From positions 1 through 61,666 of IMG/VR virus record IMGVR_UViG_2874968258_000001: a DNA stretch of 61,666 bases. One strand, written 5' to 3'. Shown here in pieces: positions 364 to 60,457 of the stretch (position 1 is the first letter of the stretch; every line of letters starts with the position of its first letter). A program made the translations under genes and the position numbers. Below the pieces are notes generated by a model. It had not been told where the DNA came from. It did not search any database and saw only the letters and a program-made list of their open reading frames with translations. This DNA comes from a virus. Lineage: Duplodnaviria > Heunggongvirae > Uroviricota > Caudoviricetes.

Positions 364-424
364 GGTAGCCTGAGTTTAACGGACGCTCCTTCCTGAAATA
401 GAATGGCATCAGAAGGAGCTAATA

Positions 425-727: not shown

Positions 728-762
728 TCGAACAATGGCGACAACAATTTCCCATTGAAGCG

Positions 763-1581: not shown

Positions 1582-1643
1582 AAAAAGAACAAATGGTAGT
1601 GTCCGCTATTGCCAGTACACCTCAAGGATAAGGCTAAAAAATC

Positions 1644-3140: not shown

Positions 3141-3496
3141 TGGCAAAGATCGCCGGAACCTGTTTTTTTAAAGTGGATGGTCAGCAGTTATCGCTGACAG
3201 GTGGCATTGAAGTGCCGATGAACACCAATGTCCGGGATGACATCGTCGGCATGGCAGGGGATGTGGATTACAAGGAGACCTGGCGGTCACCTTACGTTAA
3301 GGGCACGTTTAAAGTGCCCAAAAACTTTCCGGTCGACAAAATTACCACCTCAGACCAGATGACGATTACCGCTGAGCTGGCAAACGGCATGGTGTATGTG
3401 CTTTCGGCGGCATGGCTGCACGGAGAGGCTAATCATAATGCCGAAGAAGGCACGGCAGATCTTGAATTCCACGGCGAAGAGGGAGGGTATCAGTAA
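3140..3496 (+). CDS. Phage tail tube protein
   Basis: 118-aa ORF starting on the sheath stop, in canonical sheath-tube order. Confidence 0.65.
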   Translation: MAKIAGTCFFKVDGQQLSLTGGIEVPMNTNVRDDIVGMAGDVDYKETWRSPYVKGTFKVPKNFPVDKITTSDQMTITAELANGMVYVLSAAWLHGEANHNAEEGTADLEFHGEEGGYQ

Positions 3497-3923
3497 TGGC
3501 AATGAACGTTACAGAAATAGTTTTAAAAAAACCGGTGACAGCGCATAACGAAATGCTGCATGTGCTGGAGTTGCGCGAGCCCACGTATGACGAAATCGAG
3601 GCGCTGGGTTTTCCTTTCATTATTTCCGGTGAAGGCAGTATTAAACTGGACAGCCAGGTGGCACTGAAATATATCCCGTTGCTGGCGGGGATCCCGCGTT
3701 CATCGGCGGCGCAGATGGCAAAACTGGATATTTTTAAGACCAGCATGCAGATCCTGCGTTTTTTTACCCAGTCGGAGACGGGAAGCACCTCCGGAAACGA
3801 CTCTACAATGTTGCCTGGTTCTGGAAACTGAATCCACTGGAGCTGCGACGGGGGGCTGTTTCGCAGTTTACAGAACTGGAAGCCGAGGCCGTCCGCATTA
3901 ACGAGGAGATGAAGCATGGCTGA
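3496..3923 (+). CDS. Tail assembly chaperone; short form ends 3831, long form by programmed -1 frameshift at T7 run 3759-3765 and ends at 3923
   Basis: Slippery cgT TTT TTT aligned to the zero frame; the -1 frame stays open for ~53 codons (FFYPVGDGKHLRKRLYNVAWFWKLNPLELRRGAVSQFTELEAEAVRINEEMKHG) and ends just inside the tape measure start; position upstream of TMP is conserved in tailed phages. Confidence 0.55.
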
Positions 3924-5865
3924 CAGTTTTCAGCTGAAGGCGATCATCACTGCCGTGGATAAGGTATCGGCACCGCTGAAGGGAATGCAGCGCCAGCTGA
4001 AAGGTTTTAAAAAGGAGTTTGCCAGCCTGTTACTGGGCGCAGCGGGTGCCGGAACCGCAGTACTGGGGGCGCTGGCGCTCCCGGTCAAATCTGCCATTGC
4101 CCTTGAATCAAAAATGGCGGATGTCCGGAAAGTGGTGGATGGTCTGGATACGCCGGAAGCGTTTAAGGCAATGACGGAGCAGGTGCGCGACCTGTCAACA
4201 GAACTGCCCATGTCGGCGGAAGGTATCGCCGAAATTGTGGCGGCGGGTGGTCAGGCTGGTATCGCCCGTGACGAGCTGATGCAGTTTACTGACGATGCCG
4301 TGAAGATGGGCGTGGCCTTTGACACCACGGCAGAAGAATCCGGTCAGATGATGGCGCAGTGGCGCACTGCCTTTAAACTGACACAGGGAGAGGTGGCAGG
4401 GCTTGCGGATAAGATTAACTATCTTGGTAATACCGGTCCTGCAAGTGCGAAAAAGATTTCTGATGTTGTGACCCGTATTGGCCCTTTAGGCAGTGTTGCG
4501 GGTGTGGCCTCCGGAGAGATTGCCGCAATGGGGGCAACCATTGCCGGAATGGGGGTGGAGTCAGAAATTGCTGCGACGGGGATAAAGAATTTTATGTTGT
4601 CGCTGACAGCGAGGGATTCTGCCACCAAATCGCAGAAAAAAGTGCTCCGCTCGTTGCGCATTAGCCCGAAAAAACTGGCGGCGGATATGCAGAAAGACGC
4701 CCGCGGGGCCATGCTGCACGTACTGGATTCTCTGGCAAAAGTGCCGAAAGAAAAACAGGCTGCTGTGCTGAAAGCGCTGTTCGGGAAGGAATCCCTGGGG
4801 GCCATTGCGCCGCTGCTCACGAATCTGGATTTGTTGCGAACCAACTTTAATCGTGTGGCGGATGCGCAGCAGTATGGCGGCTCAATGCAGAAAGAATATG
4901 CCGCCCGTGCCGCGACGACAGAAAATCAGTTGTTGCTGCTGCAGAACCAGATCAATGCGATTTCTTCCACGCTGGGGGAAACCTTCCTGCCTTCACTCAA
5001 TGAAGGCATAAAAGAGATGAAGCCTTTTCTGGAAGAAGTGCGCACGTTTGTCAGAGAAAATCCTGAGGTCGTAAAAACCATCGCGAAAACTGGTGCGGCA
5101 TTACTGACGATGGGCGTGGCGATTGGCACATTGACACGCATAACAAAAATCATGGGTAGCGTGATGAATATGACGCCGGCAAAGGGATTAATTGCGCTTC
5201 TCGTCGGTGGTGCATATCTCATAATTGATAACTGGGAAACGGTCGGTCCGGTTGTGAAAAAAGTCTGGCAGGAGGTTGATCAGGTTGTCAGAGCAATGGG
5301 GGGATGGGAACAGGCAGTAAAAACAATAGCAACGGTTTCTGCCCTGTATATTGGTGTGAAGGCGGTGGCAAGTATTCGTGCGGCAACAGTCGCCCAGAAT
5401 CAATGGACAACGGCGGCAGGAAAAACAGGGCTGAAATTAAAGGGCCTCGGAAAGATCAGTCTGATTGGTGGATTGCTTGAACTGGGCATGATGGCGCAGG
5501 AGTTTGAAAAAGCACATCCCTGGCTTGTTAAAAATTTTGTGGCTGATGCACTGAACAGTGGATTTGGTCTGAATGATAAGTTCGACGAGTGGGGCAAACA
5601 GTTCCATGATTTTGTCTATGACATGACCGGATGGCAGATGCCACGTGGTGATGGGTATTTATCTCCCGATAAACGCTACACCCCGAATGTATCACTGGAA
5701 AGGAATCAGCTGTTAAGCCTTGCATCTTCACCGGCAACCCGCAGCGAACTTAAGGTGACGTTTGACAACGCGCCGCCTGGAATGCGCGTTATCGATTTGC
5801 CGAAAACAGGCGATCCCTTTATGAAAATCACCCATGATGTTGGGTATTCTCCATTTAAAAGGTGA
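3916..5865 (+). CDS. Tail tape measure protein
   Basis: 649-aa ORF, Ala/Gly-rich with predicted hydrophobic segments, located after the chaperone pair. Confidence 0.75.
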   Translation: MADSFQLKAIITAVDKVSAPLKGMQRQLKGFKKEFASLLLGAAGAGTAVLGALALPVKSAIALESKMADVRKVVDGLDTPEAFKAMTEQVRDLSTELPMSAEGIAEIVAAGGQAGIARDELMQFTDDAVKMGVAFDTTAEESGQMMAQWRTAFKLTQGEVAGLADKINYLGNTGPASAKKISDVVTRIGPLGSVAGVASGEIAAMGATIAGMGVESEIAATGIKNFMLSLTARDSATKSQKKVLRSLRISPKKLAADMQKDARGAMLHVLDSLAKVPKEKQAAVLKALFGKESLGAIAPLLTNLDLLRTNFNRVADAQQYGGSMQKEYAARAATTENQLLLLQNQINAISSTLGETFLPSLNEGIKEMKPFLEEVRTFVRENPEVVKTIAKTGAALLTMGVAIGTLTRITKIMGSVMNMTPAKGLIALLVGGAYLIIDNWETVGPVVKKVWQEVDQVVRAMGGWEQAVKTIATVSALYIGVKAVASIRAATVAQNQWTTAAGKTGLKLKGLGKISLIGGLLELGMMAQEFEKAHPWLVKNFVADALNSGFGLNDKFDEWGKQFHDFVYDMTGWQMPRGDGYLSPDKRYTPNVSLERNQLLSLASSPATRSELKVTFDNAPPGMRVIDLPKTGDPFMKITHDVGYSPFKR

Positions 5866-6097
5866 GTTCTTTTTTTGTGGTGAAAGATGAGGCAAAATTA
5901 TCGCGTAACATGCTAACAATGGAGTTTGTTTTGTGATAAAGCCATTTTTAATGACGGTTGCAATATTAACCTCTTGCTGTGCTCAGGCGAAAATACTAAC
6001 AAATGAGGAGATTGTTTCACGATTTATTAGTAACGTTAAAACGGTGATGCTGCCAACTTACTGATTTAGTGTATGATGGTGTTTTTGAGGTGCTCCA

Positions 6098-6373
6098 GTG
6101 GCTTCTGTTTCTATCAGCTGTCCCTCCTGTTCAGCTACTGACGGGGTGGTGCGTAACGGCAAAAGCACTGCCGGACATCAGCGCTATCTCTGCTCTCACT
6201 GCCGTAAAACATGGCAACTGCAGTTCACTTACACCGCTTCTCAACCCGGTACGCACCAGAAAATCATTGATATGGCCATGAATGGCGTTGGATGCCGGGC
6301 AACTGCACGCATTATGGGCGTTGGCCTCAACACGATTTTACGTCACTTAAAAAACTCAGGCCGCAGTCGGTAA
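6098..6373 (+). CDS. insA: IS1 InsA
   Basis: 91-aa [43 protein letters not shown]... Confidence 0.95.
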
Positions 6374-6795
6374 CCTCGCGCATACAGCCGGGCAGTGACG
6401 TCATCGTCTGCGCGGAAATGGACGAACAGTGGGGCTATGTCGGGGCTAAATCGCGCCAGCGCTGGCTGTTTTACGCGTATGACAGTCTCCGGAAGACGGT
6501 TGTTGCGCACGTATTCGGTGAACGCACTATGGCGACGCTGGGGCGTCTTATGAGCCTGCTGTCACCCTTTGACGTGGTGATATGGATGACGGATGGCTGG
6601 CCGCTGTATGAATCCCGCCTGAAGGGAAAGCTGCACGTAATCAGCAAGCGATATACGCAGCGAATTGAGCGGCATAACCTGAATCTGAGGCAGCACCTGG
6701 CACGGCTGGGACGGAAGTCGCTGTCGTTCTCAAAATCGGTGGAGCTGCATGACAAAGTCATCGGGCATTATCTGAACATAAAACACTATCAATAA
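6292..6795 (+). CDS. insB: IS1 InsB frame (made as InsAB' by -1 frameshift at the A6C motif)
   Basis: 167-aa ORF overlapping insA in the -1 frame; identical copy present in the second IS1. Confidence 0.9.
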
Positions 6796-7198
6796 GTTGG
6801 AGTCATTACCCGTTAAAACATCTGCAGATAATGACGTTGACTTGGATACAGATGGATTCAGACAACTGAGGATATCGTGCCCATCCCCTTCTGCCAGCGG
6901 TGCGATTATATTGAGAAAAGCTTCTTATGAATTCGGCAAAAGTATAGGTGTATTTGATTTTGCAAACAATGCATCACCAGCGACGATGACATTTTTGATC
7001 CCAATATATAAAGATGATGATTTTGATTCAGATACTGTTGGTTTTACATTTGCGTTCAAGATGCCAAGAGGCCAGTTTTTTGTAGATGTAAAAGAAAACG
7101 GGAATATCAGAGCTGGAGTTAATGTTAATGGCGAGTCGGGAGTGACCTACGAAAATTGCAAATTGAATATGAAAGATATTAATGATGATTAATATATA

Positions 7199-7226
7199 AG
7201 CCGCCAGAAATTGGCGGTTTTTTTAT
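7199..7226 (+). terminator. Rho-independent terminator after the disrupted lipoprotein gene
   Basis: Hairpin CCGCCAGAAATTGGCGG followed by T7. Confidence 0.6.
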
Positions 7227-7238
7227 AGTGGAGACAGT

Positions 7239-8630
7239 ATGGACTTACCTTCTTTACCTTCTCTTTCTTCACTCTTTTCTGCATCTTCAGGTATCAATTG
7301 GCGCGATAATCTTTACGACGCTTCATTTCGTGGCGTTCCGTTTTCGGTGGAGAGCGACGAGGGTTCGTTCGGACGCCGCGTTCAGGTCCATGAATACCCA
7401 AACCGTGACAAACCGTACACGGAAGATCTCGGGCGTGCCACGCGACGGCTGACGATTAATGCGTATCTCGTTGGTGATGATTACGCAGAGCAGCGCGACA
7501 GGCTGATTACAGCGATTGAAACCGCCGGGCCGGGGACGCTGATCCATCCGCAGTTCGGTGAAATGCAGGGCTGTATTGACGGGCAGGTGACCGTTTCTCA
7601 CTCCGGCACTGAAGGCCGTATGTGCCGGGTTTCATTTCAGTTTGTTGAGAGCGGGGAACTGTCATTTCCGGTCGCCGGAGCTGCAACCGCCAGAAAACTG
7701 GAGGAGTCGTCCGTATTCCTGGATGAGTTGATTGAAGACATGTTCGGCGATTTTGATCTCGCGGGAATACCGGACTTTATTCAGAACGATGTTATTGCCC
7801 GGACGACCGATATGCTGGGAACCGTTCAGACAGCTTTCAAAATGGTTAATTCGGCTGTTTCTGCCGGAGCGAGACTACTGCAGGGCGATTTATCCGTCAT
7901 TCTGATGCCGCCGTCGGTTGCCAGTGATTTTGTGCATACGTTGCAGGATACCTGGCGGGCCGGAACCCGGCTGGTGGATAACACACAGGATCTGGTGCAG
8001 TCCATAACGACAATGTCCGGCATTACGCTGGACCCAGGACTGGCACCGCGTGCGGTGTGGCCCACAGATTCCGCATCGGTTATCAGGCAAAAACAGCAGA
8101 CAAACCTTGTGGCTGCTGTCATCCGGACGACGGCAATCAGCGAAGCCACAAGGGCGGTCACTTCACTGCCACAACCCGGAAGCCTGGTGAAAAATCAGCA
8201 GGCGGTTGTGGCTGTTGGTGGTTCCACTGAACGTCAGTCCGATATTATTCACGTTTCTCATCCGGCACTTGACAGCGTGGCAGCCAGCACAGGACAGGAT
8301 GAGAGAGCGCAACCACCCACGCGGGAAAATCTCACCATCATACGCGAATCGCTGAACGCGGCGATTGAACAGGAGCTCAGGCGTACGGCGGATGACAGGC
8401 TGTTTTTTCAGCTGACGTCATTACGTACAGAACTGAACCGGGATATTCAGGCGCGTCTGGTTCAGACGGAGGAAACCGCAGAGCGAACGCCAGCGGAAGT
8501 TCTGCCTGCGCTTGTTCTGGCTGCGTCATGGTACGACGATGCGTCCCGTGAAACTGATATCCTGGATCGAAATGCCATCTCTCATCCGGGCTTTGTTCCG
8601 GTCAGGGCATTAAGGGTACCCGTCAGATGA
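7239..8630 (+). CDS. Mu gp43-like DNA circulation / tail protein
   Basis: 463-aa ORF between TMP and baseplate genes in Mu-like order. Confidence 0.65.
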   Translation: MDLPSLPSLSSLFSASSGINWRDNLYDASFRGVPFSVESDEGSFGRRVQVHEYPNRDKPYTEDLGRATRRLTINAYLVGDDYAEQRDRLITAIETAGPGTLIHPQFGEMQGCIDGQVTVSHSGTEGRMCRVSFQFVESGELSFPVAGAATARKLEESSVFLDELIEDMFGDFDLAGIPDFIQNDVIARTTDMLGTVQTAFKMVNSAVSAGARLLQGDLSVILMPPSVASDFVHTLQDTWRAGTRLVDNTQDLVQSITTMSGITLDPGLAPRAVWPTDSASVIRQKQQTNLVAAVIRTTAISEATRAVTSLPQPGSLVKNQQAVVAVGGSTERQSDIIHVSHPALDSVAASTGQDERAQPPTRENLTIIRESLNAAIEQELRRTADDRLFFQLTSLRTELNRDIQARLVQTEETAERTPAEVLPALVLAASWYDDASRETDILDRNAISHPGFVPVRALRVPVR

Positions 8631-9709
8631 ATGATACCGTTTTACTTCGGGTTTCCGGTCGCGAATGGGGCGGCTGGACATCCGTCCGTATCAGTGCGGG
8701 CATTAACCGTATTGCCCGGGATTTTAATGTTGCCATTACCACCCGCTGGCCCGGAAGCCGGGATTATCAACCCCGGATAAAAAATGGTGAGCTGGTTGAA
8801 GTGCTTATCGGGGATGAGCCTGTGCTCACCGGATATGTGGAGGCACTACCGCTTCGTTATGACGCCAGCAGCGTCAGCATGGGAATTGTCGGGCGAAGCA
8901 AAACAGCCGATCTGGTTGACTGCTCTGCTTTGCCACTCCAGCAGAGCGGAAAAAACCTGCTCAGAATAGTCAGTGAACTGGCTGCGCCATTTGGCATCAC
9001 CGTTGTTGATGCTGGCGTGCCGCAGACAGCGGTGATTGATGCCCAGCCGGAACACGGCGAAACCGTTGCCGATTGTCTTAACCGGTTACTGGGGCAGGTT
9101 CAGACGCTGGCTTATGACGATGAATGCGGGCGACTGGTTCTGGGAAAACCCGGAACAGGTAAAGCGGCGACGGCGCTGGTGCTGGTGCTGGGAGAGAATA
9201 TTCTTTCCTGTGACACGGAAAGAAGCATCAGAGAGCGGTTTTCTGAATATCAGGTCAGTGGGCAGCGCCCGGGCAACGACGATGATTTTGGTGAGGCCAC
9301 CATTGCCGCAATACGTCAGACCATTCAGGACAGTGGCGTGACCCGTTATCGCCCTTTGTTGATTCAGCAGTCAGGCACAGCAACGACAGCAACCTGTAAG
9401 GCCCGTTGTGAATTTGAAGCGCGCCAACGGGCTGCGCTTACCCGTGAGACAACATATACGGTTCAGGGCTGGCGGCAGGGCAGTGGCGCGTTATGGCGTC
9501 CGGGGTTATCTGTCATCGTTTTCGACCCGCTGAATAATTTTGATAATGATGAACTGGTGATCGCAGAAGTTACCTATAACCAGGACGACCGGGGCACGAC
9601 GACTGAATTACGGGTTGGCCCGGCAGATGCTTATCTCCCCGAGCCTGTTACCGCCAGGAAGAAAAAAATGTTGAGGAGGATTTCTGATGAACGGGTTTTC
9701 TCTTCGTAA
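8627..9709 (+). CDS. Mu gpP (gp44)-like baseplate hub protein
   Basis: 360-aa ORF overlapping the previous stop; position in baseplate cluster. Confidence 0.65.
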   Translation: MNDTVLLRVSGREWGGWTSVRISAGINRIARDFNVAITTRWPGSRDYQPRIKNGELVEVLIGDEPVLTGYVEALPLRYDASSVSMGIVGRSKTADLVDCSALPLQQSGKNLLRIVSELAAPFGITVVDAGVPQTAVIDAQPEHGETVADCLNRLLGQVQTLAYDDECGRLVLGKPGTGKAATALVLVLGENILSCDTERSIRERFSEYQVSGQRPGNDDDFGEATIAAIRQTIQDSGVTRYRPLLIQQSGTATTATCKARCEFEARQRAALTRETTYTVQGWRQGSGALWRPGLSVIVFDPLNNFDNDELVIAEVTYNQDDRGTTTELRVGPADAYLPEPVTARKKKMLRRISDERVFSS

Positions 9710-10220
9710 TCTGATTTCCCGGGCTGTCATCACGGCGGTGGATTCCGCCAGAAAGTGTCAGTCTGTAGGGTTGAAAATGATAGCCGGAGATCAGAAACAA
9801 CACGTTGAGCACCTTGAACCTTATGGTTTTACATCTGCCGCACAGAACGGTGCTGAGGGCGTTGCTTTATTTCCGGCGGGCGATCGTTCTCATGGTGTGG
9901 TTGTGGTCGTGGCTGACAGACGTTACCGGCTGAAAGGACTGAAACGTGGGGAAGTGGCGCTTTATGACGATCTGGGACAGTCCGTTGTCCTGACCCGTTC
10001 CGGTATTGTGGTGGACGGGGCCGGGAAGGCCATAATTTTTAAAAACGCGCCTAAAGCGCGCTTTGAAATGCCAGTCGAATCCACCGCCGATATTACTGAC
10101 AATTGCGACAGTGGCGGACTCAGCATGCAGCAAATGCGGCAGGCCTACAATGCCCACAAACATACCGAAAATGGTGATGGTGGCGGGATCACTGACACGC
10201 CGGATCAACCGATGGGCTGA
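9687..10220 (+). CDS. Baseplate assembly protein V-like (Mu gp45-like spike)
   Basis: 177-aa ORF in baseplate cluster. Confidence 0.6.
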   Translation: MNGFSLRNLISRAVITAVDSARKCQSVGLKMIAGDQKQHVEHLEPYGFTSAAQNGAEGVALFPAGDRSHGVVVVVADRRYRLKGLKRGEVALYDDLGQSVVLTRSGIVVDGAGKAIIFKNAPKARFEMPVESTADITDNCDSGGLSMQQMRQAYNAHKHTENGDGGGITDTPDQPMG

Positions 10221-10225
10221 AAATC

Positions 10226-10636
10226 ATGATGATTAATGTTAACGGGCGACCCGTGTCGACCGGGGCTTCGATCGACCTTCTGACGCGTGCTGTGATTATT
10301 TCGCTTTTTACATGGCGGCGTGCCGGGCGTGATGATGCACCACGGATATTTGGATGGTGGGGGGATACCTGGCCTGCGGTTCAGAATGATCGCACGGGGT
10401 CGCGTTTGTATCTGTTGCGACGCAGCAAGCTGACAAATAAAACCCCGCAGCTTGCCAGAGATTATGTCCGTGAGGCGCTGGCGTGGATGGTGGAGGATGG
10501 TGTTGCTTCCCGTCTTGATATTAACGCTGTCCGGACCGGGACAGACTCGCTGGCACTTGCCATTACCATTTACCAGCGTGACGGCAATATTCACAACATT
10601 ATTTTTGATGATATCTGGAGTGAACTGAATGGCTGA
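10226..10636 (+). CDS. Mu gp46-like baseplate protein (gp25/W-like)
   Basis: 136-aa ORF in baseplate cluster. Confidence 0.6.
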   Translation: MMINVNGRPVSTGASIDLLTRAVIISLFTWRRAGRDDAPRIFGWWGDTWPAVQNDRTGSRLYLLRRSKLTNKTPQLARDYVREALAWMVEDGVASRLDINAVRTGTDSLALAITIYQRDGNIHNIIFDDIWSELNG

Positions 10637-11237
10637 CAGTCAGTTTTATCGCCCCGGCCTCCCGCAACTTATTTCTATGATCCGGAGCGATTTATTAACC
10701 CGCTTTGAGCAGGATACGCTGCTTCGTCGTATGGATGCGGAAGTGTATGCCCGTGTACAGGCTGCAGCCGTACACACGTTGTACGGGTATATCGATTATC
10801 TTGCCAGAAATCTGTTACCGGACGTGTGTGATGAAGACTGGCTGTACCGGCACGCCAGAATCAAACGCTGCCCGCGAAAAGAAGCGGTGGCAGCCCGGGG
10901 ATTTGTGCGCTGGGATGGCGTAGAGGGGACGCCGGTATTGCCAGCGGGAACGCAGATCCAGCGTGATAATCAGGTGACCTTTACCACGACGGCGACGGTG
11001 ACCGCAGCCGATGGTCTTCTCCGGGTGCCTGTTGTGGCAGACGAACCGGGATCGGCGGGGAATACGGATGATGGTATTGCCATGCAACTGGGAACACCCG
11101 TCAGTGGTCTGCCGTCCACAGGGTACGCTGACACCATTACAGACGGTGAAGATATTGAAAATCTGGAAATATGGCGTGCCCGCGTTATGGAACGTTATTA
11201 CTACATTCCACAGGGGGGCGCAGGTAATGACTCCAAC

Positions 11238-11741
11238 TTATTGATAGTGTTTTATGTTCAGATAATGCCCGATGACTTTGTCATGCAGCTCCACCGATTT
11301 TGAGAACGACAGCGACTTCCGTCCCAGCCGTGCCAGGTGCTGCCTCAGATTCAGGTTATGCCGCTCAATTCGCTGCGTATATCGCTTGCTGATTACGTGC
11401 AGCTTTCCCTTCAGGCGGGATTCATACAGCGGCCAGCCATCCGTCATCCATATCACCACGTCAAAGGGTGACAGCAGGCTCATAAGACGCCCCAGCGTCG
11501 CCATAGTGCGTTCACCGAATACGTGCGCAACAACCGTCTTCCGGAGACTGTCATACGCGTAAAACAGCCAGCGCTGGCGCGATTTAGCCCCGACATAGCC
11601 CCACTGTTCGTCCATTTCCGCGCAGACGATGACGTCACTGCCCGGCTGTATGCGCGAGGTTACCGACTGCGGCCTGAGTTTTTTAAGTGACGTAAAATCG
11701 TGTTAAGGCCAACGCCCATAATGCGTGCAGTTGCCCGGCAT
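11238..11741 (-). CDS. insB: IS1 InsB frame
   Basis: Same translation as the first copy; ORF track shows the part from an internal Met (11238..11615). Confidence 0.85.
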
Positions 11742-11935
11742 CCAACGCCATTCATGGCCATATCAATGATTTTCTGGTGCGTACCGGGTTGAGAAGCGGT
11801 GTAAGTGAACTGCAGTTGCCATGTTTTACGGCAGTGAGAGCAGAGATAGCGCTGATGTCCGGCAGTGCTTTTGCCGTTACGCACCACCCCGTCAGTAGCT
11901 GAACAGGAGGGACAGCTGATAGAAACAGAAGCCAC
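11660..11935 (-). CDS. insA: IS1 InsA
   Basis: Identical 91-aa InsA translation on minus strand. Confidence 0.95.
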
Positions 11936-12487
11936 TGGAGCACCTCAAAAACACCATCATACACTAAATCAGTAAGTTGGCAGCATCACCGGGGGCGCAG
12001 ACCCTGATTATGTTATCTGGGCGAAAGAAGTTCAGGGTATTAACCGTGCATGGACTTTCAGACACTGGAAAGGCACTGGAACGGTTGGCGTGATGGTGGC
12101 GACAAACGATCCGGAACGCCCGGCCCCGGATGAAAGCGTGATTAACGCAGTCAGGGACCACATCCTTCCTCTGGCACCTGTTGCCGGAAGCGGATTGTAT
12201 GTATTCGGTGCCACAGAAAAAGTCATCCCGATGACGATTGCATTATCGAAAGACACACCGCAGATCAGGACTGCAATAAAAGCAGAGCTGAATGCACTGA
12301 TGTTACGGGATGGTGTGCCAGAGGGGCGTATGTATCTGTCCAGAATCAGTGAGGCCATCAGTTTGTCTGCTGGTGAAGTGGCCCACCGGTTAATCGTCCC
12401 TTCATCGGATATTGACCTGGGGGAGACCGAGCTTCCGGTGCTCGGCGAGATCACCTGGCAGGCTTATGACCCGGCAAGGAGTAAATA

Positions 12488-13078
12488 ATGGATTCGTTAC
12501 AGGATGATTATACAAAGCTGCTGTACGGACTGATGCCGCCGGGGCCTGCATGGTCAGATACCGACGGTGTACTTGACGGTCTGGCACCATCGCTTGTGCG
12601 TGTTCACCAGCGGGCTGATGAACTGGTGATTGAAATCGATCCCGGTCAGTCCACAGAGCTGATTGAACGTTATGAAGAATTGTATGGTTTACCTGATTCC
12701 TGTTCCCCTGTCGGAACCCAGACATTACGCCAGCGTCAGCAACGTCTTGAAGCAAAAGCCAATGTGGCTGGTGGCATAAATGAGCAGTTCTTCCTGGATC
12801 AGCTTGAGGCGCTGGGATATACCGGCGTAACGATCGAACAGTTCCAGCACTTGGATGCAAGCCCCGATCCGGAATGGGGAGATCGCTGGCGTTATTTCTG
12901 GCGTGTGACGTTGCCGATGGATGCCGGTGCTCAGTGGCAGACATGCACGGACGCCTGCAACACACCGATCCGGACGTGGGGGGATACGGTTGCGGAGTGC
13001 GTGATTAATAAATTATGTCCGTCACACACCGTCGTTTTATTTTCCTATCCAGATGAGGATGAAGATGCACAGGATTGA
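12488..13078 (+). CDS. Mu gp48-like tail protein (YmfQ/DUF2313-like)
   Basis: 196-aa ORF between baseplate J and tail fibre. Confidence 0.6.
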   Translation: MDSLQDDYTKLLYGLMPPGPAWSDTDGVLDGLAPSLVRVHQRADELVIEIDPGQSTELIERYEELYGLPDSCSPVGTQTLRQRQQRLEAKANVAGGINEQFFLDQLEALGYTGVTIEQFQHLDASPDPEWGDRWRYFWRVTLPMDAGAQWQTCTDACNTPIRTWGDTVAECVINKLCPSHTVVLFSYPDEDEDAQD

Positions 13079-14105
13079 TACGCTGACTGCGGTAAAAGAT
13101 AAGTTTGGTCCGGGTAAGAACGGATTTACTGACGGAAATCTTCGCACAGGACGTCTTGCTACCTGGCTGAACAGTGCCATGTGGAATGCCATTCAGGAGG
13201 AAATCTGTGGTGTCATTGAGAAGGCCGGGATAGAACTGAATAAAGAAGAACACGACCAGCTATATAAGGCTATATTATTGCTGGTGGGCGGTGCAATTAA
13301 CGAAGAGGCATTGCTGATAAAAAATAACCTTTCGGATGTGGAAGACAGGGATGAGGCTGTTGAAAACCTCGGATTAAAACCCACGGTGGATAAGGCAAAA
13401 AATGCCGTTCAGCGTGATGGCGACACCATGACCGGAGAGCTGAAAATCCGTGGTGTTAATGCGCTGAGGATTTTCAACGAAGCTTTTGGCCTGATTTTTC
13501 GTCGTTCGGAAGAGTGCCTGCACCTTATTCCCACCAGTGAAGGTCAGGGGGAAAATGGCGATATTGGTCCCCTGCGCCCGTTCACCATTAATCTGCGGAC
13601 GGGTGAAATATCCATGTCGCATAAAGTGTCTGTTGGCGGTGGTTCGCAGGTCAATGGTGCGCTGGGTATCGGCGTTCAGAACGCCCTGGGGGGGAATTCA
13701 ATTGTTCTTGGTGATAATGACACCGGATTCAAACAGAATGGTGATGGCCTGCTGGATGTTTATGCCAATAGCGTGCATGTGTTGCGTTTTCAGAGTGGCA
13801 GTATCCAGAGTAATAAAGCTGTAAACGTTACAGGACGGGTAACACCGTCAGACTACGGAAACTTTGATGCCCGTTACCAGCAGCGAAATGGTGGCGTGCA
13901 GGATGTGCGGTATGGTTATGAAATGTATTACACCCCCGGCAGTAACACCGTTTCGTGGACATTTCGCTCACCTTCGGGACACGGGCTGTCAGGGATATCG
14001 ATATCGGATACCGGCCGTAACTCAGCGGATAACGTCAACGGCGTGTATTACCGACCGCTGCAAAAACTGATTAATGGCACCTGGTATAACGTAGCGAGTA
14101 TTTAA
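13065..14105 (+). CDS. Tail fibre protein
   Basis: ~347-aa ORF, Gly/Asn/Ser-rich C-terminal region, followed by a tfa-type gene. Confidence 0.65.
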   Translation: MHRIDTLTAVKDKFGPGKNGFTDGNLRTGRLATWLNSAMWNAIQEEICGVIEKAGIELNKEEHDQLYKAILLLVGGAINEEALLIKNNLSDVEDRDEAVENLGLKPTVDKAKNAVQRDGDTMTGELKIRGVNALRIFNEAFGLIFRRSEECLHLIPTSEGQGENGDIGPLRPFTINLRTGEISMSHKVSVGGGSQVNGALGIGVQNALGGNSIVLGDNDTGFKQNGDGLLDVYANSVHVLRFQSGSIQSNKAVNVTGRVTPSDYGNFDARYQQRNGGVQDVRYGYEMYYTPGSNTVSWTFRSPSGHGLSGISISDTGRNSADNVNGVYYRPLQKLINGTWYNVASI

Positions 14106-14107
14106 CA

Positions 14108-14653
14108 ATGTTGCATTTAAAAAATATTACGGCAGGTAATCCGAAAACCGCGGAATAATATCAGCTGACAAAACAGTATGATGTCACCTGGCTTTTTTCG
14201 GAAGACGGCAAAAACTGGTATGAAGAACAGAAGAACTTTGCCAGTGACACCATAAAAATGGTTTACACCGGAGACGGGCGCGTGGTGTGGGTCGGTAAGG
14301 ATGTGACAGGCATTGAACCCCGTAACGCCAGTGTTATTGAAGTTCCTGATATTACCGCCAACCGCCGCATTACCGCGCCGGGTTACTGGTTTTACCGCAA
14401 TGATGAATTTGTCTTTGACTACAGACTCAAAGCGGAAGATGAGCGTGATGCCCTTCTGGCTCAGGTCAGTGCCCGGACAGGGGAATGGGAAGAAGACCTG
14501 CTGCTGGGGCTAATCAGCGACGAAGACCGGGAAAAACTGAAAGCGTACCGTATTTACGCGAAATCGCTGCAGGCGATGGATTTCAGCACCATCACTGATA
14601 AATCCTCATATAACGCCATTGAATGGTCCGTCTCTCCGGAAGGTTCTTCCTGA
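14108..14653 (+). pseudogene. Tail fibre assembly protein with in-frame ochre stop at codon 17 (14156-14158)
   Basis: ATG 14108 gives MLHLKNITAGNPKTAE-stop-YQLTKQYDVTWLFSEDGKNWYEE...; the frame is continuous with the annotated ORF 14258..14653. Confidence 0.55.
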
Positions 14654-14676
14654 TTTAATTTATCGCGAGAAAAACT

Positions 14677-15945
14677 ATGTCTGTAGTGATATCAGGTGCG
14701 CTGACTGATGGCGCAGGCATCCCCATGTCCGGATGCCAGATTATTCTGAAATCCCGTGTAAACACCTCAGAAGTGGTGATGCGTACCAGGGCTGATGTAG
14801 TGACCGGAAATAACGGTGAATATTCGTTTGAGGCACAGGTCGGAAAATATTGCGTGTATCTGAAACGGGACTGGCGCGACGAGTACTGTGTTGGCGACAT
14901 TGCTGTATACGACGACTCAAAGCCCGGCACGCTGAATGACTTTCTGATTGCTCCTGATGAGGGCGACCTGAAACCGGATGTCGTCAAACGCTTTGAGGAA
15001 ATGGTGGCGCAGGCGCAGCAGAGCGCCGGGGCCGCAGCCGGAAACGCACAGCAGACGGCGCAGGATGTGGCGGCAGCCGCAGGTTATGCCCGCGCAGCAG
15101 AGCAGGCCAAAAATGACATTGATGCTGCGCTGACCGGCACTCTGAAAACGGCTAACCATCTGTCTGAAATCGCAGCAGCAGGCGAAAAGGCACAACAGAA
15201 GTCCCGGGATAATCTGGGGCTGAAAAGTGCGGCCACGATGGAAGCACAGAGCGACATTTACGACCGGACAAAAGGCCGTCTGGCGATACCCGGCGCATTC
15301 GGCTTTGGGTGTGCTTTTCTGCCTGAAGATGTTATCCGTTTTGACACTAAGAGTGATTTCCTGGCCTGGGTAAGGAATGCGCTGCCAGGTGAATATTCCG
15401 TTGCTGGCCCCTACGACATCATCATACCCGACACACGGTTTGAAGGGGTGCTCAGCATCCGGTGGACTGATGCACGCCCTGAGACAACAGAACCGAGGTA
15501 CAGAGCCAAATCCCTTACTTTTTACGGCATTAACGGCCCCATTTATCACACCCGCTACTGCTACTGGCCCATATCCAGACTGACTGGCTGGGTGAAAATA
15601 AATATAACCACAGAAGATATTATTTACAGAATCGTGGCGAGCTCTGTCTGCAACAGATGGGGAGACCCTGACATTGGCGGGCTGATTATTGCTGCGTACC
15701 AGGGAGAAGCTGACGGTGATAAAGTCATCAGACTTGTCAGGGGGCAGTCATACAGAGGCTCACGACTGGGACCGGTGGGGATTTCAGTGCCCAGTACTCC
15801 CACCGGAACGTATATAGCATCCCCACAATTTTTCATTACGGGATGTTCAGAGCATTCATTACCGGGGTCATATAGCGCCCTGTCCGGGGTGCCGGATGCT
15901 CATGTCTCTGGCGCAATGCCCGGGCTTTTTATTCGCACATCGTGA
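14677..15945 (+). CDS. Side tail fibre protein with lambda Stf-like N-terminal domain and a different C-terminal domain
   Basis: N-terminus MSVVISGALTDGAGIPMSGCQIILKSR...[13 protein letters not shown] parallels the stf gene at 54196 ([27 protein letters not shown]...[13 protein letters not shown]). Confidence 0.65.
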   Translation: MSVVISGALTDGAGIPMSGCQIILKSRVNTSEVVMRTRADVVTGNNGEYSFEAQVGKYCVYLKRDWRDEYCVGDIAVYDDSKPGTLNDFLIAPDEGDLKPDVVKRFEEMVAQAQQSAGAAAGNAQQTAQDVAAAAGYARAAEQAKNDIDAALTGTLKTANHLSEIAAAGEKAQQKSRDNLGLKSAATMEAQSDIYDRTKGRLAIPGAFGFGCAFLPEDVIRFDTKSDFLAWVRNALPGEYSVAGPYDIIIPDTRFEGVLSIRWTDARPETTEPRYRAKSLTFYGINGPIYHTRYCYWPISRLTGWVKINITTEDIIYRIVASSVCNRWGDPDIGGLIIAAYQGEADGDKVIRLVRGQSYRGSRLGPVGISVPSTPTGTYIASPQFFITGCSEHSLPGSYSALSGVPDAHVSGAMPGLFIRTS

Positions 15946-15955
15946 GGAATGCACC

Positions 15956-16519
15956 GTGGAAATTAAAAAAATCATTAATCCCCGTTATACCGAAAGTGGC
16001 GCAGTAGACTGTGACGTTTTTTTTGACGACAGGGACCTGGCAGTCCCCTACACAGCCACCGCTGATGATGTCGCACCGACGGGTCAGCAAATCTGGCAGG
16101 AACTGCAAAGTGGCAAATGGGGTGAGATAGCCCCATTCACTGTGACACCAGAAATGCTGGAAGCGGCCAGAGAGGCCAGACGTCAGGAAATTGAAGCATG
16201 GCGCACAGAACAGGAGGCGAAGCCGTTCACGTTTGAATGGAATGGTCGTATCTGGAATGCTGGCCCCGACTCACTGGGCCGCCTGTCCCCGGTAGTCATG
16301 CTGGCAAAATCTGTCACAGCACAAACGCATATGGCGTGGGGTGATGCCGATAATCAGCAGGTGAAACTGTCGATGCCGGAACTGGAAGAACTGGCGGCAG
16401 CAATGGTGCAGGCGCAGGTCGATCGCAACGATGAGATTTATCGCCGTCAGCGTGAAATGAAAGAGGAGCTGAGTGGTCTGGAGGATTTGGGAACAATTAG
16501 AGCGTTTGATGTTACGTAA
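15956..16519 (+). CDS. Putative tail fibre assembly / chaperone protein
   Basis: GTG start with GAGGA 8 nt upstream, immediately after the stf-like stop; family assignment uncertain. Confidence 0.4.
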   Translation: MEIKKIINPRYTESGAVDCDVFFDDRDLAVPYTATADDVAPTGQQIWQELQSGKWGEIAPFTVTPEMLEAAREARRQEIEAWRTEQEAKPFTFEWNGRIWNAGPDSLGRLSPVVMLAKSVTAQTHMAWGDADNQQVKLSMPELEELAAAMVQAQVDRNDEIYRRQREMKEELSGLEDLGTIRAFDVT

Positions 16520-16565
16520 TTGGTAAGCTGCATCGTGTTAAATTGTTACCCTTATTTACAACTAG

Positions 16566-16600
16566 AAAAGCCTCTGACTTCATAATCAGAGGCTTTTTTG
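16566..16600 (+). terminator. Rho-independent terminator
   Basis: AAAAGCCTCTGA...TCAGAGGCTTTTTT hairpin plus T-run. Confidence 0.65.
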
Positions 16601-16727
16601 AAATGCACGTGCATTTTGCGTGTATATTTTTGTCTTTTTCTGGTCCGCTTACTGTCTGGTCAGTGTCCGTAAGTGACTGTTTTTATAGTCTCTGTCCGGT
16701 TGCAGTCCTGTCAAAAGTGGTGGAGCT

Positions 16728-16762
16728 GGCGGGAGTTGAACCCGTGTCCGAATATTTGCAAT
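16728..16762 (-). other. Partial copy of ssrA (tmRNA) 3' end; candidate prophage attachment-site core
   Basis: Minus-strand TTCGGACACGGGTTCAACTCCCGCCAGCTCCACCA matches the E. coli tmRNA 3' terminus as I recall it, with one mismatch; similarity stops upstream, so it is a fragment. Confidence 0.6.
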
Positions 16763-16827
16763 GCGTTGATTTATAACGAATAAAATTTAAAGTTGGTTCT
16801 TACGGCTCTTTTGCGGATATTTTACTA

Positions 16828-17646
16828 TCAATTCGTAGTCCTGCCATATTTACGTTTTTTCTTGCGGTTTGTTTCTGGTTTCTTCTCTCGGTTATTGTCT
16901 ACTTTTTCATGTATATCCATATTGAACCAAGAAGCATGCGAAACCTCACTTAATGGAAATATGATACTGGTATCAACTCCATCAAGATCGTTGTAATCAT
17001 TTGAAAACAGGACCCTTAGTGTGTCCTTGTCCCTGTAACCAGATATGATTGGGCTAATAGAAATTTCAAGGTTAGGGCCTTGTTTTTCGTTTGGCTCACT
17101 AATCATGTTAACTGTTCCGACATATACTTTGCGGCATTTCAGGCTTATCAGTACCGGTCTGTTTGTAGTCGCTGAATCAAAGAATAGCTGACCAAGTGAG
17201 CCATCAGACAACAGTTTTTCCAACTCATTAAGCCTGATTAGTTGCTTTGCGAAATTGATAGAAATTGCATTATTGGATGCAGAACTAATAGTTTTTGCTG
17301 CCACAAACATACGAAATTTGCATATCTGCAACCAAATAAAAGCAACTCCACAAGTCGCCACTGATAGCAGGATGAGCCATGATGTTATCCTGTTTTCTTT
17401 AGGGTCTGCACTACCATCAATAAGATGTGATACCCATGTGACCAGTGTAAGGCTTGGTATAAAGTACTTGGTTGCATACGCCAGCACGACTGCAACAATG
17501 AACGAGTACACACCGTACGTGGCCACCTTCATATAGAGAAGCTGGCCGTCGTAACGGTGGAGTCGATAGAATAATTTGATGTTATGGGGCGATGTAACCA
17601 GTAAGGATCCACTTACTAAAAGTGGAATGATCAGCAATGCAAACAT
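16828..17646 (-). CDS. Hypothetical membrane protein, three N-terminal hydrophobic helices plus ~160-aa soluble domain with basic tail
   Basis: 272-aa ORF; hydrophobic segments at residues ~2-17, 41-62, 87-108; AT-rich codon usage; 4 bp downstream of the 82-aa ORF. Confidence 0.55.
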   Translation of the reverse strand: MFALLIIPLLVSGSLLVTSPHNIKLFYRLHRYDGQLLYMKVATYGVYSFIVAVVLAYATKYFIPSLTLVTWVSHLIDGSADPKENRITSWLILLSVATCGVAFIWLQICKFRMFVAAKTISSASNNAISINFAKQLIRLNELEKLLSDGSLGQLFFDSATTNRPVLISLKCRKVYVGTVNMISEPNEKQGPNLEISISPIISGYRDKDTLRVLFSNDYNDLDGVDTSIIFPLSEVSHASWFNMDIHEKVDNNREKKPETNRKKKRKYGRTTN

Positions 17647-17649
17647 TTG

Positions 17650-17898
17650 TTAGTCGTCATTGTCCATTGAGTTAGCTTTAGCGGCTGCAACAGCTTTTGC
17701 ATCCTGCTCGACGAATTTTCTAGCTGCTTTCCTAAGCTGAGTGATTTTTTCTGGGTCAGTAGATGGGTCTACAATAACTGCACCACGCCCTACGACCTTG
17801 ATGTTTTTAACACCAGATTTGTTCAAACGATCGGCCATGGCTTGTCCGCCTTTGACCAAATCATTCAGCCCAAACATCTTCATGACTAGTTCTGACAT
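17650..17898 (-). CDS. Hypothetical small hydrophilic protein, first gene of the cargo operon
   Basis: 82-aa ORF co-oriented and nearly abutting the membrane protein gene. Confidence 0.5.
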   Translation of the reverse strand: MSELVMKMFGLNDLVKGGQAMADRLNKSGVKNIKVVGRGAVIVDPSTDPEKITQLRKAARKFVEQDAKAVAAAKANSMDNDD

Positions 17899-18193
17899 AA
17901 AGACCTCCTTTCAGTCCCCCCAATGTATCCTTTTGAGGCATTTATTGCTCCCCGCAGAACGGGGCGCGGGATTTTACCATAATCTACGTACTGGCTCCAA
18001 GATTTCCCGCGTGTTCCTAGTACTAGGACAGCTGCCTGAGTACCAAGTTCACCTATAACATATATACTTGGTTCGAATTTTTGCAAGGTAAAAAGTGCCT
18101 TATGTTTAAGTATGTATGATGTGGATATGACGAACATAACCACATCACAAATAACTTTTTATCAGGTTTCAGTGGCTATTTGTTCGGGCAGCA

Positions 18194-19369
18194 TCAAGCC
18201 TGTTTTGTATCATTAGTATTTTTAGCGGTATGTCCGTCATATGCAGCAAGGTAACTGCCATAGTGACGAAATAGCATTTCTGGTCCCTTATGGCCCATCT
18301 GGCCTGCAAGCCAGAACAGGTTCGCACCACGGCTGATATGGCTGGTGGCGAATGTATGCCTGGTCTGATATGGGTTACGGTACCGGATACCTGCTTTACG
18401 TAAGGTTGGTATCCACGCTTTTTTCCTTATCGCATCGGCGCTGGCCCACGGTTTGTTTGTCTTTGGATCTTCAAAGACAGTAGCATCCTTCATGAATGTA
18501 AATGGCTTCTGATTTATCAGCGCCAACATTGCCTCTTCTGTCAGTTCAACTTTACGAGTACCGGCTTTTGTCTTTGTTCCTTTGATAACACCGACAACAC
18601 TTGCGCTCTGGACATGGGCAGTTTTTCCAACAAAGTCGATATCACGCCATCGAAGGGCACATAATTCAGAACTACGCAGGCCTGTATGTATAGCGAACCG
18701 GAACAGATTTTCCCATTGTTTGTTTCCGGCTGCTGCTAGTAATGCATCAACTTCTGCTGGTGATAGCGGATCAACCACGTAGCTGCTTTCTGCTTCTGAC
18801 TTATCACTTTGGTAGCGCGAAGCAGTTACCAACGATACGGGGTTAATTTGAAGTACCCCATCGGTTACGGCTTCATCAAGTGCTGACCGCAGGAAAGATA
18901 ACTGGTTGCGAATTGTTTTTAAGGTCGTTTTCTGGCTTTGAATCCACGCTTTCAGGATTGCTGGTGTTAATTCACTTGCAGGGCAAATGTGGAGTGAGGC
19001 TAACGCACTACGGCATTTTTTATAACCACCAATCGTAGAGGGTGAAAGTTTTCTCGTTTCGCAGATTTCAAGGTATTCGTCCAGGTACATTTTTACCGTT
19101 TTGCCTGCAGCAGCATTACCAAAAATTTTCAAACGAGCAGAACGGGGAAAATATTCCGCATAAATGAATGTTCCCCTTTCGATCTTATTATGAATTTCGC
19201 CGAGTGTGCGCTCGGCGTATTTTATGTTCTTTGGTATTACTTCCAGATTGGAAAGAGGCTCACGACATTTAACTCCTTTGTAGGTGAAAGTTATATTGAT
19301 CGTTTCGCCCTGGCGGTGTTTCCTGATTGTTACGCCGCGCGGTAGTTTGAGCAGTTTTGTCTGGCCCAT
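18194..19369 (-). CDS. int: Phage integrase (tyrosine recombinase)
   Basis: 391-aa ORF with R...HxxR...Y catalytic motifs (LRSSELCALRW, YQTRHTFAT, LFRHYGSY). Confidence 0.9.
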   Translation of the reverse strand: MGQTKLLKLPRGVTIRKHRQGETINITFTYKGVKCREPLSNLEVIPKNIKYAERTLGEIHNKIERGTFIYAEYFPRSARLKIFGNAAAGKTVKMYLDEYLEICETRKLSPSTIGGYKKCRSALASLHICPASELTPAILKAWIQSQKTTLKTIRNQLSFLRSALDEAVTDGVLQINPVSLVTASRYQSDKSEAESSYVVDPLSPAEVDALLAAAGNKQWENLFRFAIHTGLRSSELCALRWRDIDFVGKTAHVQSASVVGVIKGTKTKAGTRKVELTEEAMLALINQKPFTFMKDATVFEDPKTNKPWASADAIRKKAWIPTLRKAGIRYRNPYQTRHTFATSHISRGANLFWLAGQMGHKGPEMLFRHYGSYLAAYDGHTAKNTNDTKQA

Positions 19370-31911: not shown

Positions 31912-32964
31912 ATGAAAAATACTGTAAAAATAAACAGTGTTGATTTAATCAACGCTGATTGCCTGCATTTTATTCAGTCCCTGCCTGATGATTCCATTGA
32001 CCTGATTGTTACCGATCCGCCGTACTTCAAGGTGAAACCCAACGGCTGGGACAATCAGTGGAAAGGGGACGAAGATTACCTTAAGTGGCTGGACCACTGT
32101 CTGGCCCAGTTCTGGCGGGTGTTAAAACCTGCCGGAAGCCTTTACCTGTTCTGTGGGCATCGCTTGGCATCTGATATTGAGATCATGATGCGTGAACGTT
32201 TCAACGTGCTTAACCATATCATCTGGGCGAAGCCGTCCGGACGTTGGAATGGGTGTAATAAAGAAAGTCTGCGCGCATATTTTCCTGCCACAGAGCGCGT
32301 TCTGTTTGCTGAACATTACCAGGGTCCATATCGCGGCAAAAGTGACGGCTATGCGGCAAAAGAAAGGGAACTCAAACAGCACATAATGGCACCGCTGATA
32401 TCGTATTTCAGGGATGCTCGTGCCGAACTGGGTATAACGGCAAAACAAATTGCCGAAGCCACAGGTAAGAAAAATATGGTTTCCCACTGGTTTGGTGCCA
32501 GTCAGTGGCAGTTGCCGAATGAGGCTGACTATCGGAAGTTACAGGCACTGTTTTCCCGTATAGCGGCAGAGAAGTTTCAGGAACAACAACTGGAACAACC
32601 ACACCACCAGCTGGTGGCATCTTATGATTCACTGAATCGCAAATATTCTGAATTGCTGGATGAGTTTAAATCTCTCCGGCGCTATTTCTCCGTATCAGTC
32701 TCCGTGCCTTATACCGATGTCTGGATGCATAAACCCGTTCAGTTCTACCCGGGTAAACATCCGTGTGAGAAACCTGCGGATATGCTCCGGCAAATAATCA
32801 ATGCCAGTAGTCGACCTGGTGATCTGGTTGCTGATTTTTTTATGGGATCCGGTTCCACAATAAAAGCAGCAATGGCGCTGGGGCGTCGGGCCTTAGGTGT
32901 TGAGCTTGAGTCAGAGCGGTTTAACCAGACAGTGAAAGAGATAAACGAGCTGGTGGGGAAATAA
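31912..32964 (+). CDS. Orphan DNA methyltransferase (N6-adenine/N4-cytosine type, DPPY motif first, SAM motif last)
   Basis: IVTDPPYF near N-terminus and FFMGSGST near C-terminus. Confidence 0.75.
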   Translation: MKNTVKINSVDLINADCLHFIQSLPDDSIDLIVTDPPYFKVKPNGWDNQWKGDEDYLKWLDHCLAQFWRVLKPAGSLYLFCGHRLASDIEIMMRERFNVLNHIIWAKPSGRWNGCNKESLRAYFPATERVLFAEHYQGPYRGKSDGYAAKERELKQHIMAPLISYFRDARAELGITAKQIAEATGKKNMVSHWFGASQWQLPNEADYRKLQALFSRIAAEKFQEQQLEQPHHQLVASYDSLNRKYSELLDEFKSLRRYFSVSVSVPYTDVWMHKPVQFYPGKHPCEKPADMLRQIINASSRPGDLVADFFMGSGSTIKAAMALGRRALGVELESERFNQTVKEINELVGK

Positions 32965-57809: not shown

Positions 57810-58628
<819 letters not shown>

Positions 58629-60423: not shown

Positions 60424-60429
60424 GAACAT

Positions 60430-60452
60430 CTCCCGGCCTTTTAAGCCGGGAG
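60430..60452. terminator. Bidirectional hairpin between convergent M and R genes
   Basis: CTCCCGGC-CTTTTAA-GCCGGGAG. Confidence 0.5.
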
Positions 60453-60457
60453 TCAGC

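Follow-up and report, generated by a model that had tools for sequence, protein, structure and literature searches.

Here we describe a pair of adjacent genes in a stretch of viral DNA of 61,666 nucleotides (IMG/VR record IMGVR_UViG_2874968258_000001, Caudoviricetes), hereafter referred to as the window, in which the pair is located between the attachment (att) core of a prophage and its integrase gene int. The two genes encode a protein of 82 amino acids (aa) and a membrane protein of 272 aa, respectively. Judged by context and architecture, we consider the pair to be a mobile, self-contained accessory module that acts against phages by abortive infection or superinfection exclusion by means of a membrane effector, a reading to which we assign a probability of about one half. 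This reading is favoured because the two genes are real and constrained, are conserved as a pair and recur in the cargo slots of unrelated mobile elements. Further support comes from the adjacency to IetAS, the restriction to temperate phages within the phage database, the sporadic presence in Escherichia coli, the use of the syntenic slot of phage SfV for the gtrABV genes, and the combination of transmembrane (TM) helices with a barrel domain in one protein.

The initial annotation had placed two co-oriented genes on the minus strand between the att core and int, and open reading frames (ORFs) are found exactly at these positions, together with putative expression signals that were read from the sequence:

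17898..17650, minus strand: small partner gene, ORF of 82 aa (RefSeq WP_001293201.1)
17646..16828, minus strand: large gene, ORF of 272 aa (RefSeq WP_000457798.1), encoding a protein with three transmembrane helices and a predicted cytoplasmic small beta-barrel
17904..17909, minus strand: Shine-Dalgarno sequence AGGAGG, 5 nt 5′ of the ATG of the small gene
17971..18000, minus strand: candidate promoter (TTGGAG, 18 nt, extended −10 TGgTAAAAT) in the 295-bp spacer that separates the small gene from int

The distance between the genes had been given as 4 bp. They are indeed closely spaced, but 4 is the difference between the coordinates; the true gap from the stop codon TAA of the small gene to the ATG of the large gene is 3 nt, which fits translational coupling. 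The −35 hexamer of the candidate promoter agrees with the consensus at 3 of 6 positions and is hence not listed by a consensus scan. The start codons of the small and the large gene agree with the N-termini that are conserved among the homologues (MSELV... and MFALLIIP..., respectively). When compared with orthologues at ~72–77% nucleotide identity, both genes display 0.10–0.15 nonsynonymous substitutions per site (dN), whereas synonymous substitutions (dS) are saturated, and dN/dS is ≤0.06 for both where computable. Thus, both ORFs represent real genes under constraint: strong purifying selection acts on them, and chance ORFs are excluded. The G+C content over the pair is 0.39–0.45, as compared with 0.50–0.58 in the tail genes to the left. 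Positions 17950–17970, which directly follow the candidate extended −10 promoter and presumably belong to the 5′ leader of the small gene, hold a G+C-rich hairpin (CCCCG ttctg CGGGG) without a T-run after it.

For the large protein, a profile search of 1.84 billion representative proteins yielded 2,846 relatives at E ≤ 1e-3 and 1,772 at E ≤ 1e-10, counted as representatives at 50% identity clustering; each of 104 homologue clusters is named 'hypothetical'. Contigs chosen as one genome per species provided 80 loci, which cover Gamma-, Beta- and Alphaproteobacteria, Acidobacteria, one Flavobacterium and Turneriella. In nearly all of these loci an ORF of 60–90 aa is located directly upstream of the large gene on the same strand, and in 41 loci this ORF is detectably homologous to the small protein of the window. 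Likewise, all jackhmmer matches to the small protein (41 of 41) correspond to the ORF directly upstream of a large-gene homologue. The small proteins of Acidobacteria are homologous to this family (hhalign probability 88.6%, E 2.6e-6), those of Erwinia and Photorhabdus align in register, though weakly (profile-profile E 1e-3), and a hairpin-then-helix pattern is common to all groups. Moreover, the pairwise identities of the small proteins follow those of the large proteins (Mantel r 0.87, reached by 0 of 2000 permutations), and no other neighbour of the pair is conserved across the loci scanned. Given the retention of the small upstream ORF, the correlated divergence and the lack of conserved further neighbours, we conclude that the pair is the unit of inheritance. 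Large proteins encoded upstream at some loci were considered as a third component and rejected, as they correspond to P2 gpA and hence represent context. Long versions of the small protein (110–220 aa), which resemble fusions, are artefacts of ORF extension.

The pair recurs in diverse mobile elements. The arrangement of the window, with the pair at the ssrA prophage end beside int, is shared by 17 E. coli genomes and by Cronobacter phage phiES15 (gp01/gp02). In Klebsiella, where this is common, and in Enterobacter the pair is located at prophage ends beside a lambda-type integrase (Arm-DNA-bind_1), convergent with int and at no fewer than two chromosomal sites (≥2). Recurrence at att-int junctions of unrelated prophages, proposed as a check together with the initial annotation, is therefore observed. 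In E. coli, Citrobacter, Enterobacter, Scandinavium, Pantoea, Erwinia and Yersinia the pair occupies the gpA-gpQ slot of P2/186-like prophages, a slot that was described as a defence hotspot of P2-like prophages by Rousset et al. 2022 (PMC9122126). IncC conjugative plasmids of Salmonella likewise carry a homologue pair (26 plasmid records), and chromosomal copies are also found among unrelated housekeeping genes. In the phage database the family is present in temperate phages only. Among 5,426 complete E. coli genomes, 17 carry the version of the window and 12 carry most of the P2 version; a Citrobacter P2-type query returned nothing from E. coli genomes with megablast but gave matches in the more sensitive blastn mode. 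On the Salmonella IncC plasmid pSTY1-2010K-1587 (locus L103, 4791–5789) the pair encodes proteins of 68 and 262 aa and is located just downstream of a gene for an AAA family ATPase of 547 aa, with mercury-resistance genes further upstream.

In several P2-like elements and in one integrase/AlpA island the pair is directly adjoined by IetAS. More generally, known defence genes lie within three genes of the pair at roughly 9–10 of 56 loci, in a scan that covered the second and third neighbours for 30 of the 56 loci and did not include a control set. The strong PADLOC neighbours comprise IetAS at 2 loci, and PD-Lambda-4, CBASS, AbiLi, a reverse transcriptase, AriA (PARIS), Wadjet and PDC-S08 once each. 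With respect to arrangement, the pair and IetAS (S8 peptidase and AAA ATPase) are positioned tail to tail (L006–L008, L082–L085 and L092; for example L092 6010–10450), and they travel together in P2-like prophages and the integrase/AlpA island alike. At a different locus (L087, 1621–7228), a Klebsiella prophage end with the pair abuts a second integrase island encoding proteins with SMC_N/AAA_23, MComp1 and CTD1 domains, which may be a conflict system.

In line with the initial annotation, which could place neither protein in a known family, Pfam and NCBIfam yielded no match to either of them, and the sole family matches are phrog_3630 and phrog_35771, both of unassigned function. The pair had furthermore been put forward as a candidate for an undescribed system. 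Literature searches by accession, motif and keyword found no published characterisation, but the cassette has already been catalogued: Rousset et al. 2022 (PMC9122126) list it in Table S5B as P2-hotspot system #57, with 75 occurrences in the gpA-gpQ slot of E. coli P2-like prophages, no Pfam domain, the remark '2 TM in protein 1' and no note. The large protein of #57 is 48% identical to that of the window (E 7e-83), and the small proteins share 38% identity over 52 aa (E 9e-9). System #43, listed in the same paper as a single-gene P2-hotspot system with 93 occurrences, matches the profile of the family with a probability of 99.9%. The family motifs were not found in the paper's table of tested systems. 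The family has therefore been catalogued, but no study of it was found. The sub-branch that comprises #43 (L043–L046, L050 and L056) combines a different N-terminal membrane domain (MGPLVIMVV... or MWPVFITFV...) with the same SGYRDKDTL barrel, and its Photorhabdus/Xenorhabdus loci retain an ORF of 71–72 aa located 5 nt upstream of the large gene.

The large protein had been described as three N-terminal hydrophobic helices followed by a soluble domain of ~160 aa. This agrees well with the hydrophobic segments at residues ~1–21, 36–69 and 86–117 and the soluble C-terminal part of ~155 aa. Hydropathy and the distribution of Lys and Arg (K+R bias) predict an N-out topology with loop 1 inside, loop 2 outside and a cytoplasmic C-terminal domain, and the gene can be subdivided as follows:

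17296..17646, minus strand: membrane domain (aa 1–117) with TM1, cytoplasmic loop RLHRYDGQLLY.K, TM2, periplasmic loop and TM3, from hydropathy and K+R bias
16897..17199, minus strand: predicted cytoplasmic Sm/Hfq/WYL-like small beta-barrel (aa 150–250)
16831..16890, minus strand: Lys/Arg-rich C-terminal tail (aa 253–272), from translation and alignment

The AlphaFold2 model (predicted local distance difference test, pLDDT, 80) comprises the three transmembrane helices, two linker helices at residues 130–161 and a small beta-barrel at residues 165–240. As in Sm, LSm and Hfq proteins, this barrel is bent and five-stranded, with a helix before it. The alignment of the family reveals that TM1 (MFALLIIPLLVSG), the cytoplasmic loop given above and residues of the barrel are best conserved. 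K173, Y175, G177, P185, S202, G203 and R205 of the barrel are invariant across the family, and E184, E187, P199, Y204, K207, D208 and Y218 are nearly so. In the predicted structure these residues map to the loops between strands 2–3, 3–4 and 4–5. Sm proteins bind nucleotides with the face formed by the corresponding strand loops, and by analogy we infer that these loops form a putative ligand site. At the level of sequence, the large protein does not match the LSM and Hfq Pfam families at E up to 1 or the WYL family of Pfam, and profile searches with both protein families retrieved no relatives from the PDB. Foldseek comparison of the large-protein model with viral predicted structures gave weak matches only, all at E >1e-3.

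The Lys/Arg-rich tail noted in the initial annotation is present, but the alignment shows that it is kept in close relatives only. In members from Vibrio, Shewanella and Moritella (e.g. P0062, P0081, P0089 and P0092) it is replaced by a C-terminal extension in which a CxxC motif precedes a basic stretch (e.g. CVDCRSKMKLKIG). Moreover, phrog_23864, a profile of 143 positions with unassigned function, matches only the barrel region (aa 145–221, E 5.5e-9), and the barrel may accordingly also be present in other phage proteins that do not contain this membrane domain.

For the small protein a helix, a beta-hairpin and a second helix are predicted in a model of low confidence (pLDDT 64), and the VVGRG motif of the hairpin is invariant among the homologues. 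One public source labels the 82-aa protein 'TfoX/Sxy family transcriptional regulator of competence genes'; we rejected this label, as there is no match to Pfam TfoX at E ≤ 1 and no structural match. A likeness of the VVGRG hairpin to AbrB/MazE-type motifs is not claimed, since no profile match was obtained.

The slot that holds the pair in the window is delimited on one side by the 3′-end of ssrA, encoding transfer-messenger RNA (tmRNA), and on the other by the integrase gene, which is located upstream of and co-oriented with the pair:

16718..16750, minus strand: 3′-end of ssrA, att core and prophage boundary, from the ssrA features of phage and E. coli records and a weak Rfam tmRNA match
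18194..19369, minus strand: tyrosine integrase of 391 aa (Pfam Arm-DNA-bind_2 and Phage_integrase; annotated in E. coli as site-specific integrase)

The att core sequence GGTTCAACTCCCGCCAGCTCCACCA is present in a single copy in the window (16718–16742, minus strand), and position 16718 is exactly where the matching prophage ends of 17 complete E. coli genomes start. Correspondingly, the gene order in E. coli SA186 is bacterial glaH, 272-aa gene, 82-aa gene, int. The initial annotation had set the cargo next to an att core; the ssrA 3′-end is indeed found there, but rather than a simple attP the site is probably a junction of tandem prophages. The left side is occupied by a Mu-like contractile tail module (phiP27/SfV-like) together with a tail-fibre gene and a DUF4376 tail-fibre assembly gene, whereas int is followed on the right by SfV-like early genes and then by lambda-type late genes:

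1644–3140: contractile-tail sheath gene of the Mu-like tail module
35539: terminase gpA, lambda-like prophage
37778: portal, lambda-like prophage
44477: tape measure, lambda-like prophage
49964: gpJ, lambda-like prophage
54190: side tail fibre, lambda-like prophage

From the Mu-like tail module on the left and the lambda-like genes on the right of the att core it follows that the window probably comprises two tandem prophages at ssrA (1–16519 and 16718–57156), with the cargo belonging to the int end of the lambda-like prophage. SfV carries gtrV-gtrB-gtrA in its syntenic slot (tail-fibre assembly gene, attP, [cargo], int, xis, ... yfdR, yfdQ, yfdP), and this slot is thus a recognised cargo position in that phage lineage.

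Further cargo is located at the far, tail-fibre end of the lambda-like prophage (57810–61666):

57810–58583, minus strand: GIY-YIG protein
58948–60423: C-5 cytosine methylase
60458–61666, minus strand: EcoRII-type restriction endonuclease

The methylase and the endonuclease constitute an EcoRII restriction-modification system, and a known defence system is therefore also present at the opposite end of the lambda-like prophage that holds the pair. In the late/regulatory region of the same prophage an N6/N4 DNA methylase gene (350 aa, 31912–32964) is found, apparently an orphan. In the interval that separates the att core from the tail-fibre assembly gene, positions 16564–16599 hold a perfect hairpin that resembles a bidirectional terminator and is unlisted by the consensus scan: AAAAAA GCCTCTGA ttatgaag TCAGAGGC TTTTCT.

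The initial annotation had called the pair a cargo operon that would fit superinfection exclusion, abortive infection or toxin-antitoxin modules. Its character as a self-contained module and its recurrence in hotspots are in agreement with this proposal, but the association with defence islands is modest and most loci have no integrase within 6 kb. Several observations weigh against an anti-phage role. Defence neighbours are found at roughly 16–18% of the loci, which is perhaps twice a rough chance expectation made without a control set; a tyrosine recombinase is located within 6 kb in only 11 of 81 species-representative loci; and many loci lie among housekeeping genes, with some synteny kept within a genus. 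No family of PADLOC-DB 2.0.0 matches either protein at E up to 1, and a motif search of the DefensePredictor and Vassallo 2022 supplements did not retrieve the family. With regard to structure, the Sm-like assignment is a fold match of moderate Z, and designed SH3-like barrels score equally well; for the small protein, neither the model nor a structural search revealed a recognisable fold or structural relative.

The location of the large protein in the membrane, with a short periplasmic loop, would also suit a factor of lysogenic conversion or host physiology that alters an envelope or stress property of the host, such as receptor masking, ion homeostasis or membrane-associated RNA handling, rather than intracellular immunity. 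In line with this explanation, the syntenic slot of SfV holds gtrABV, an envelope-modifying conversion operon, and many family members are found among transporter and metabolic genes without a mobile-element marker nearby. However, the periplasmic part is small and poorly conserved, and it is TM1, the cytoplasmic loop and the cytoplasmic barrel that are conserved instead; Pfam reveals no enzyme or transporter domain, and in the P2 defence hotspot the pair is found repeatedly next to IetAS. We therefore regard a conversion factor as unlikely. The same applies more strongly to a conserved cellular membrane family unrelated to conflict, for example a membrane anchor of an RNA- or ligand-binding barrel, that is occasionally picked up by mobile elements. 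The breadth of the family (~2,846 representatives in Proteobacteria, Acidobacteria, Flavobacterium and Turneriella) and the lack of an integrase within 6 kb at most loci speak for such a family, yet the presence in ~1–2% of complete E. coli genomes is sporadic within the species, the neighbourhoods are highly variable, and phage cargo slots and plasmids have captured the pair repeatedly, which renders this explanation improbable.

A toxin-antitoxin-like addiction module, in which a membrane toxin and a small antitoxin encoded upstream stabilise prophages, islands and plasmids without serving defence, would account for the order of a small gene followed by a larger one with 3-nt spacing or 1-nt overlap, for the co-divergence of the two proteins and for their occurrence on conjugative IncC plasmids and integrative elements; the membrane protein would be a plausible toxin. 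We nevertheless consider it distinctly unlikely, as neither protein matches a toxin or antitoxin family in Pfam, NCBIfam or PADLOC, a DNA-binding fold is not recognisable in the small protein, and copies within a genus have their flanking genes in common, none of the scanned ones being a mobile-element gene. Addiction and defence are nevertheless compatible roles, as defence is also provided by many toxin-antitoxin modules. Finally, the pair directly adjoins int and xis in the same orientation, as would befit a function in the phage life cycle, i.e. the control of integration and excision, DNA entry or the timing of lysis. This appears very improbable: closely related phages hold other genes in the slot (gtrABV in SfV), the pair and int converge in the prophages of Klebsiella and Enterobacter, P2-like phages hold the pair in a different slot, and it is also present on plasmids and on chromosomes without phage genes among the neighbours scanned.

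Under the favoured anti-phage reading, the prophage would express the pair from its own signals and thereby shield the lysogen from other phages. Co-transcription and translational coupling of the small and the large gene are suggested by the 3-nt spacing together with the Shine-Dalgarno sequence and the candidate extended −10 promoter. The 272-aa protein is predicted to insert into the inner membrane in an N-out/C-in orientation, with the Sm-like barrel held in the cytoplasm on a helical linker of ~50 aa. As known for Sm, Hfq and WYL barrels, this barrel might oligomerise and/or bind a nucleic-acid or nucleotide-like ligand, and the site would then comprise the family-invariant residues in loops 2–3, 3–4 and 4–5. 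Strict adjacency and co-divergence argue for the 82-aa protein as a direct physical partner, which might either keep the membrane protein inactive or relay an infection signal. Upon infection, the transmembrane helices could, speculatively, compromise the membrane or block the entry of DNA. In this scheme the membrane protein would serve as effector, its Sm-like barrel as sensor, and the small protein as tightly bound regulator.

If the pair is defensive, it would represent a compact system of 1.1 kb with a very wide distribution, which current detection tools miss. Its carriers would comprise integrative islands, prophages of the lambdoid and P2-like types and IncC resistance plasmids in Enterobacterales, with a bearing on phage host range and phage therapy. 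The direct joining of a membrane domain to an Sm-like barrel would, if true, be an unusual means of coupling a membrane effector to a fold that binds nucleic acids or ligands. It is conceivable, but on balance doubtful, that the pair defines a new class of immune effectors: a membrane-tethered, ring-forming Sm-like sensor that detects incoming or early phage nucleic acid, or a nucleotide signal, at the inner membrane and is directly coupled, via the three transmembrane helices of the same protein, to the opening of a pore or a block of genome entry, with the small hairpin protein as gatekeeper. In that case a widespread family (~2,800 clusters at 50% identity in several phyla) would be unrelated to characterised defence proteins. 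Even if non-defensive, the pair would still be among the larger unannotated bacterial two-gene families, without a Pfam model.

When compared with known systems, the layout of the large protein, in which few transmembrane helices precede a cytoplasmic Sm-like barrel, resembles that of MscS-type channels, where transmembrane helices are followed by an Sm-like beta domain and the barrels assemble into a ring; MS_channel domains of the MscS family do not match the large protein. The closest known small beta-barrel domains are those of the Sm, LSm, Hfq and WYL type, for example in Hfq (1kq1), LSm6 (3swn), the WYL protein DriD (7tzv), BrxR and CapW; the barrel of the window protein differs in its fusion to three transmembrane helices and has no match to the LSM, Hfq or WYL families at the level of sequence. 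The gtrABV genes of SfV share with the pair the syntenic slot, the strand of int and the inclusion of membrane proteins, but they encode glycosyltransferases and a flippase, domains that Pfam does not detect in the pair. System #57 belongs to the same two-gene family and differs in location: the copy of the window is found at the att-int end of an ssrA-integrated lambda-like prophage, #57 in the gpA-gpQ slot of P2-like prophages.

The closest parallel in kind is provided by the exclusion cassettes of temperate phages. Lambda RexAB and gp30/31 of the mycobacteriophages Butters and Sbash are two-gene cassettes of prophages that are expressed from the lysogen, and each consists of one soluble and one multi-pass membrane protein, the latter being thought to be the effector. 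The pair shares with them the carriage by a prophage and the combination of a soluble with a membrane protein. In contrast, its soluble partner is very small (60–90 aa) and the candidate sensor domain resides within the membrane protein, which has three transmembrane helices as compared with four in RexB; Pfam RexA/RexB and PADLOC give no match. Taken together, the pair resembles RexAB in kind, being a two-gene cassette of a prophage with a putative membrane effector, while its family and architecture are unrelated to anything characterised.

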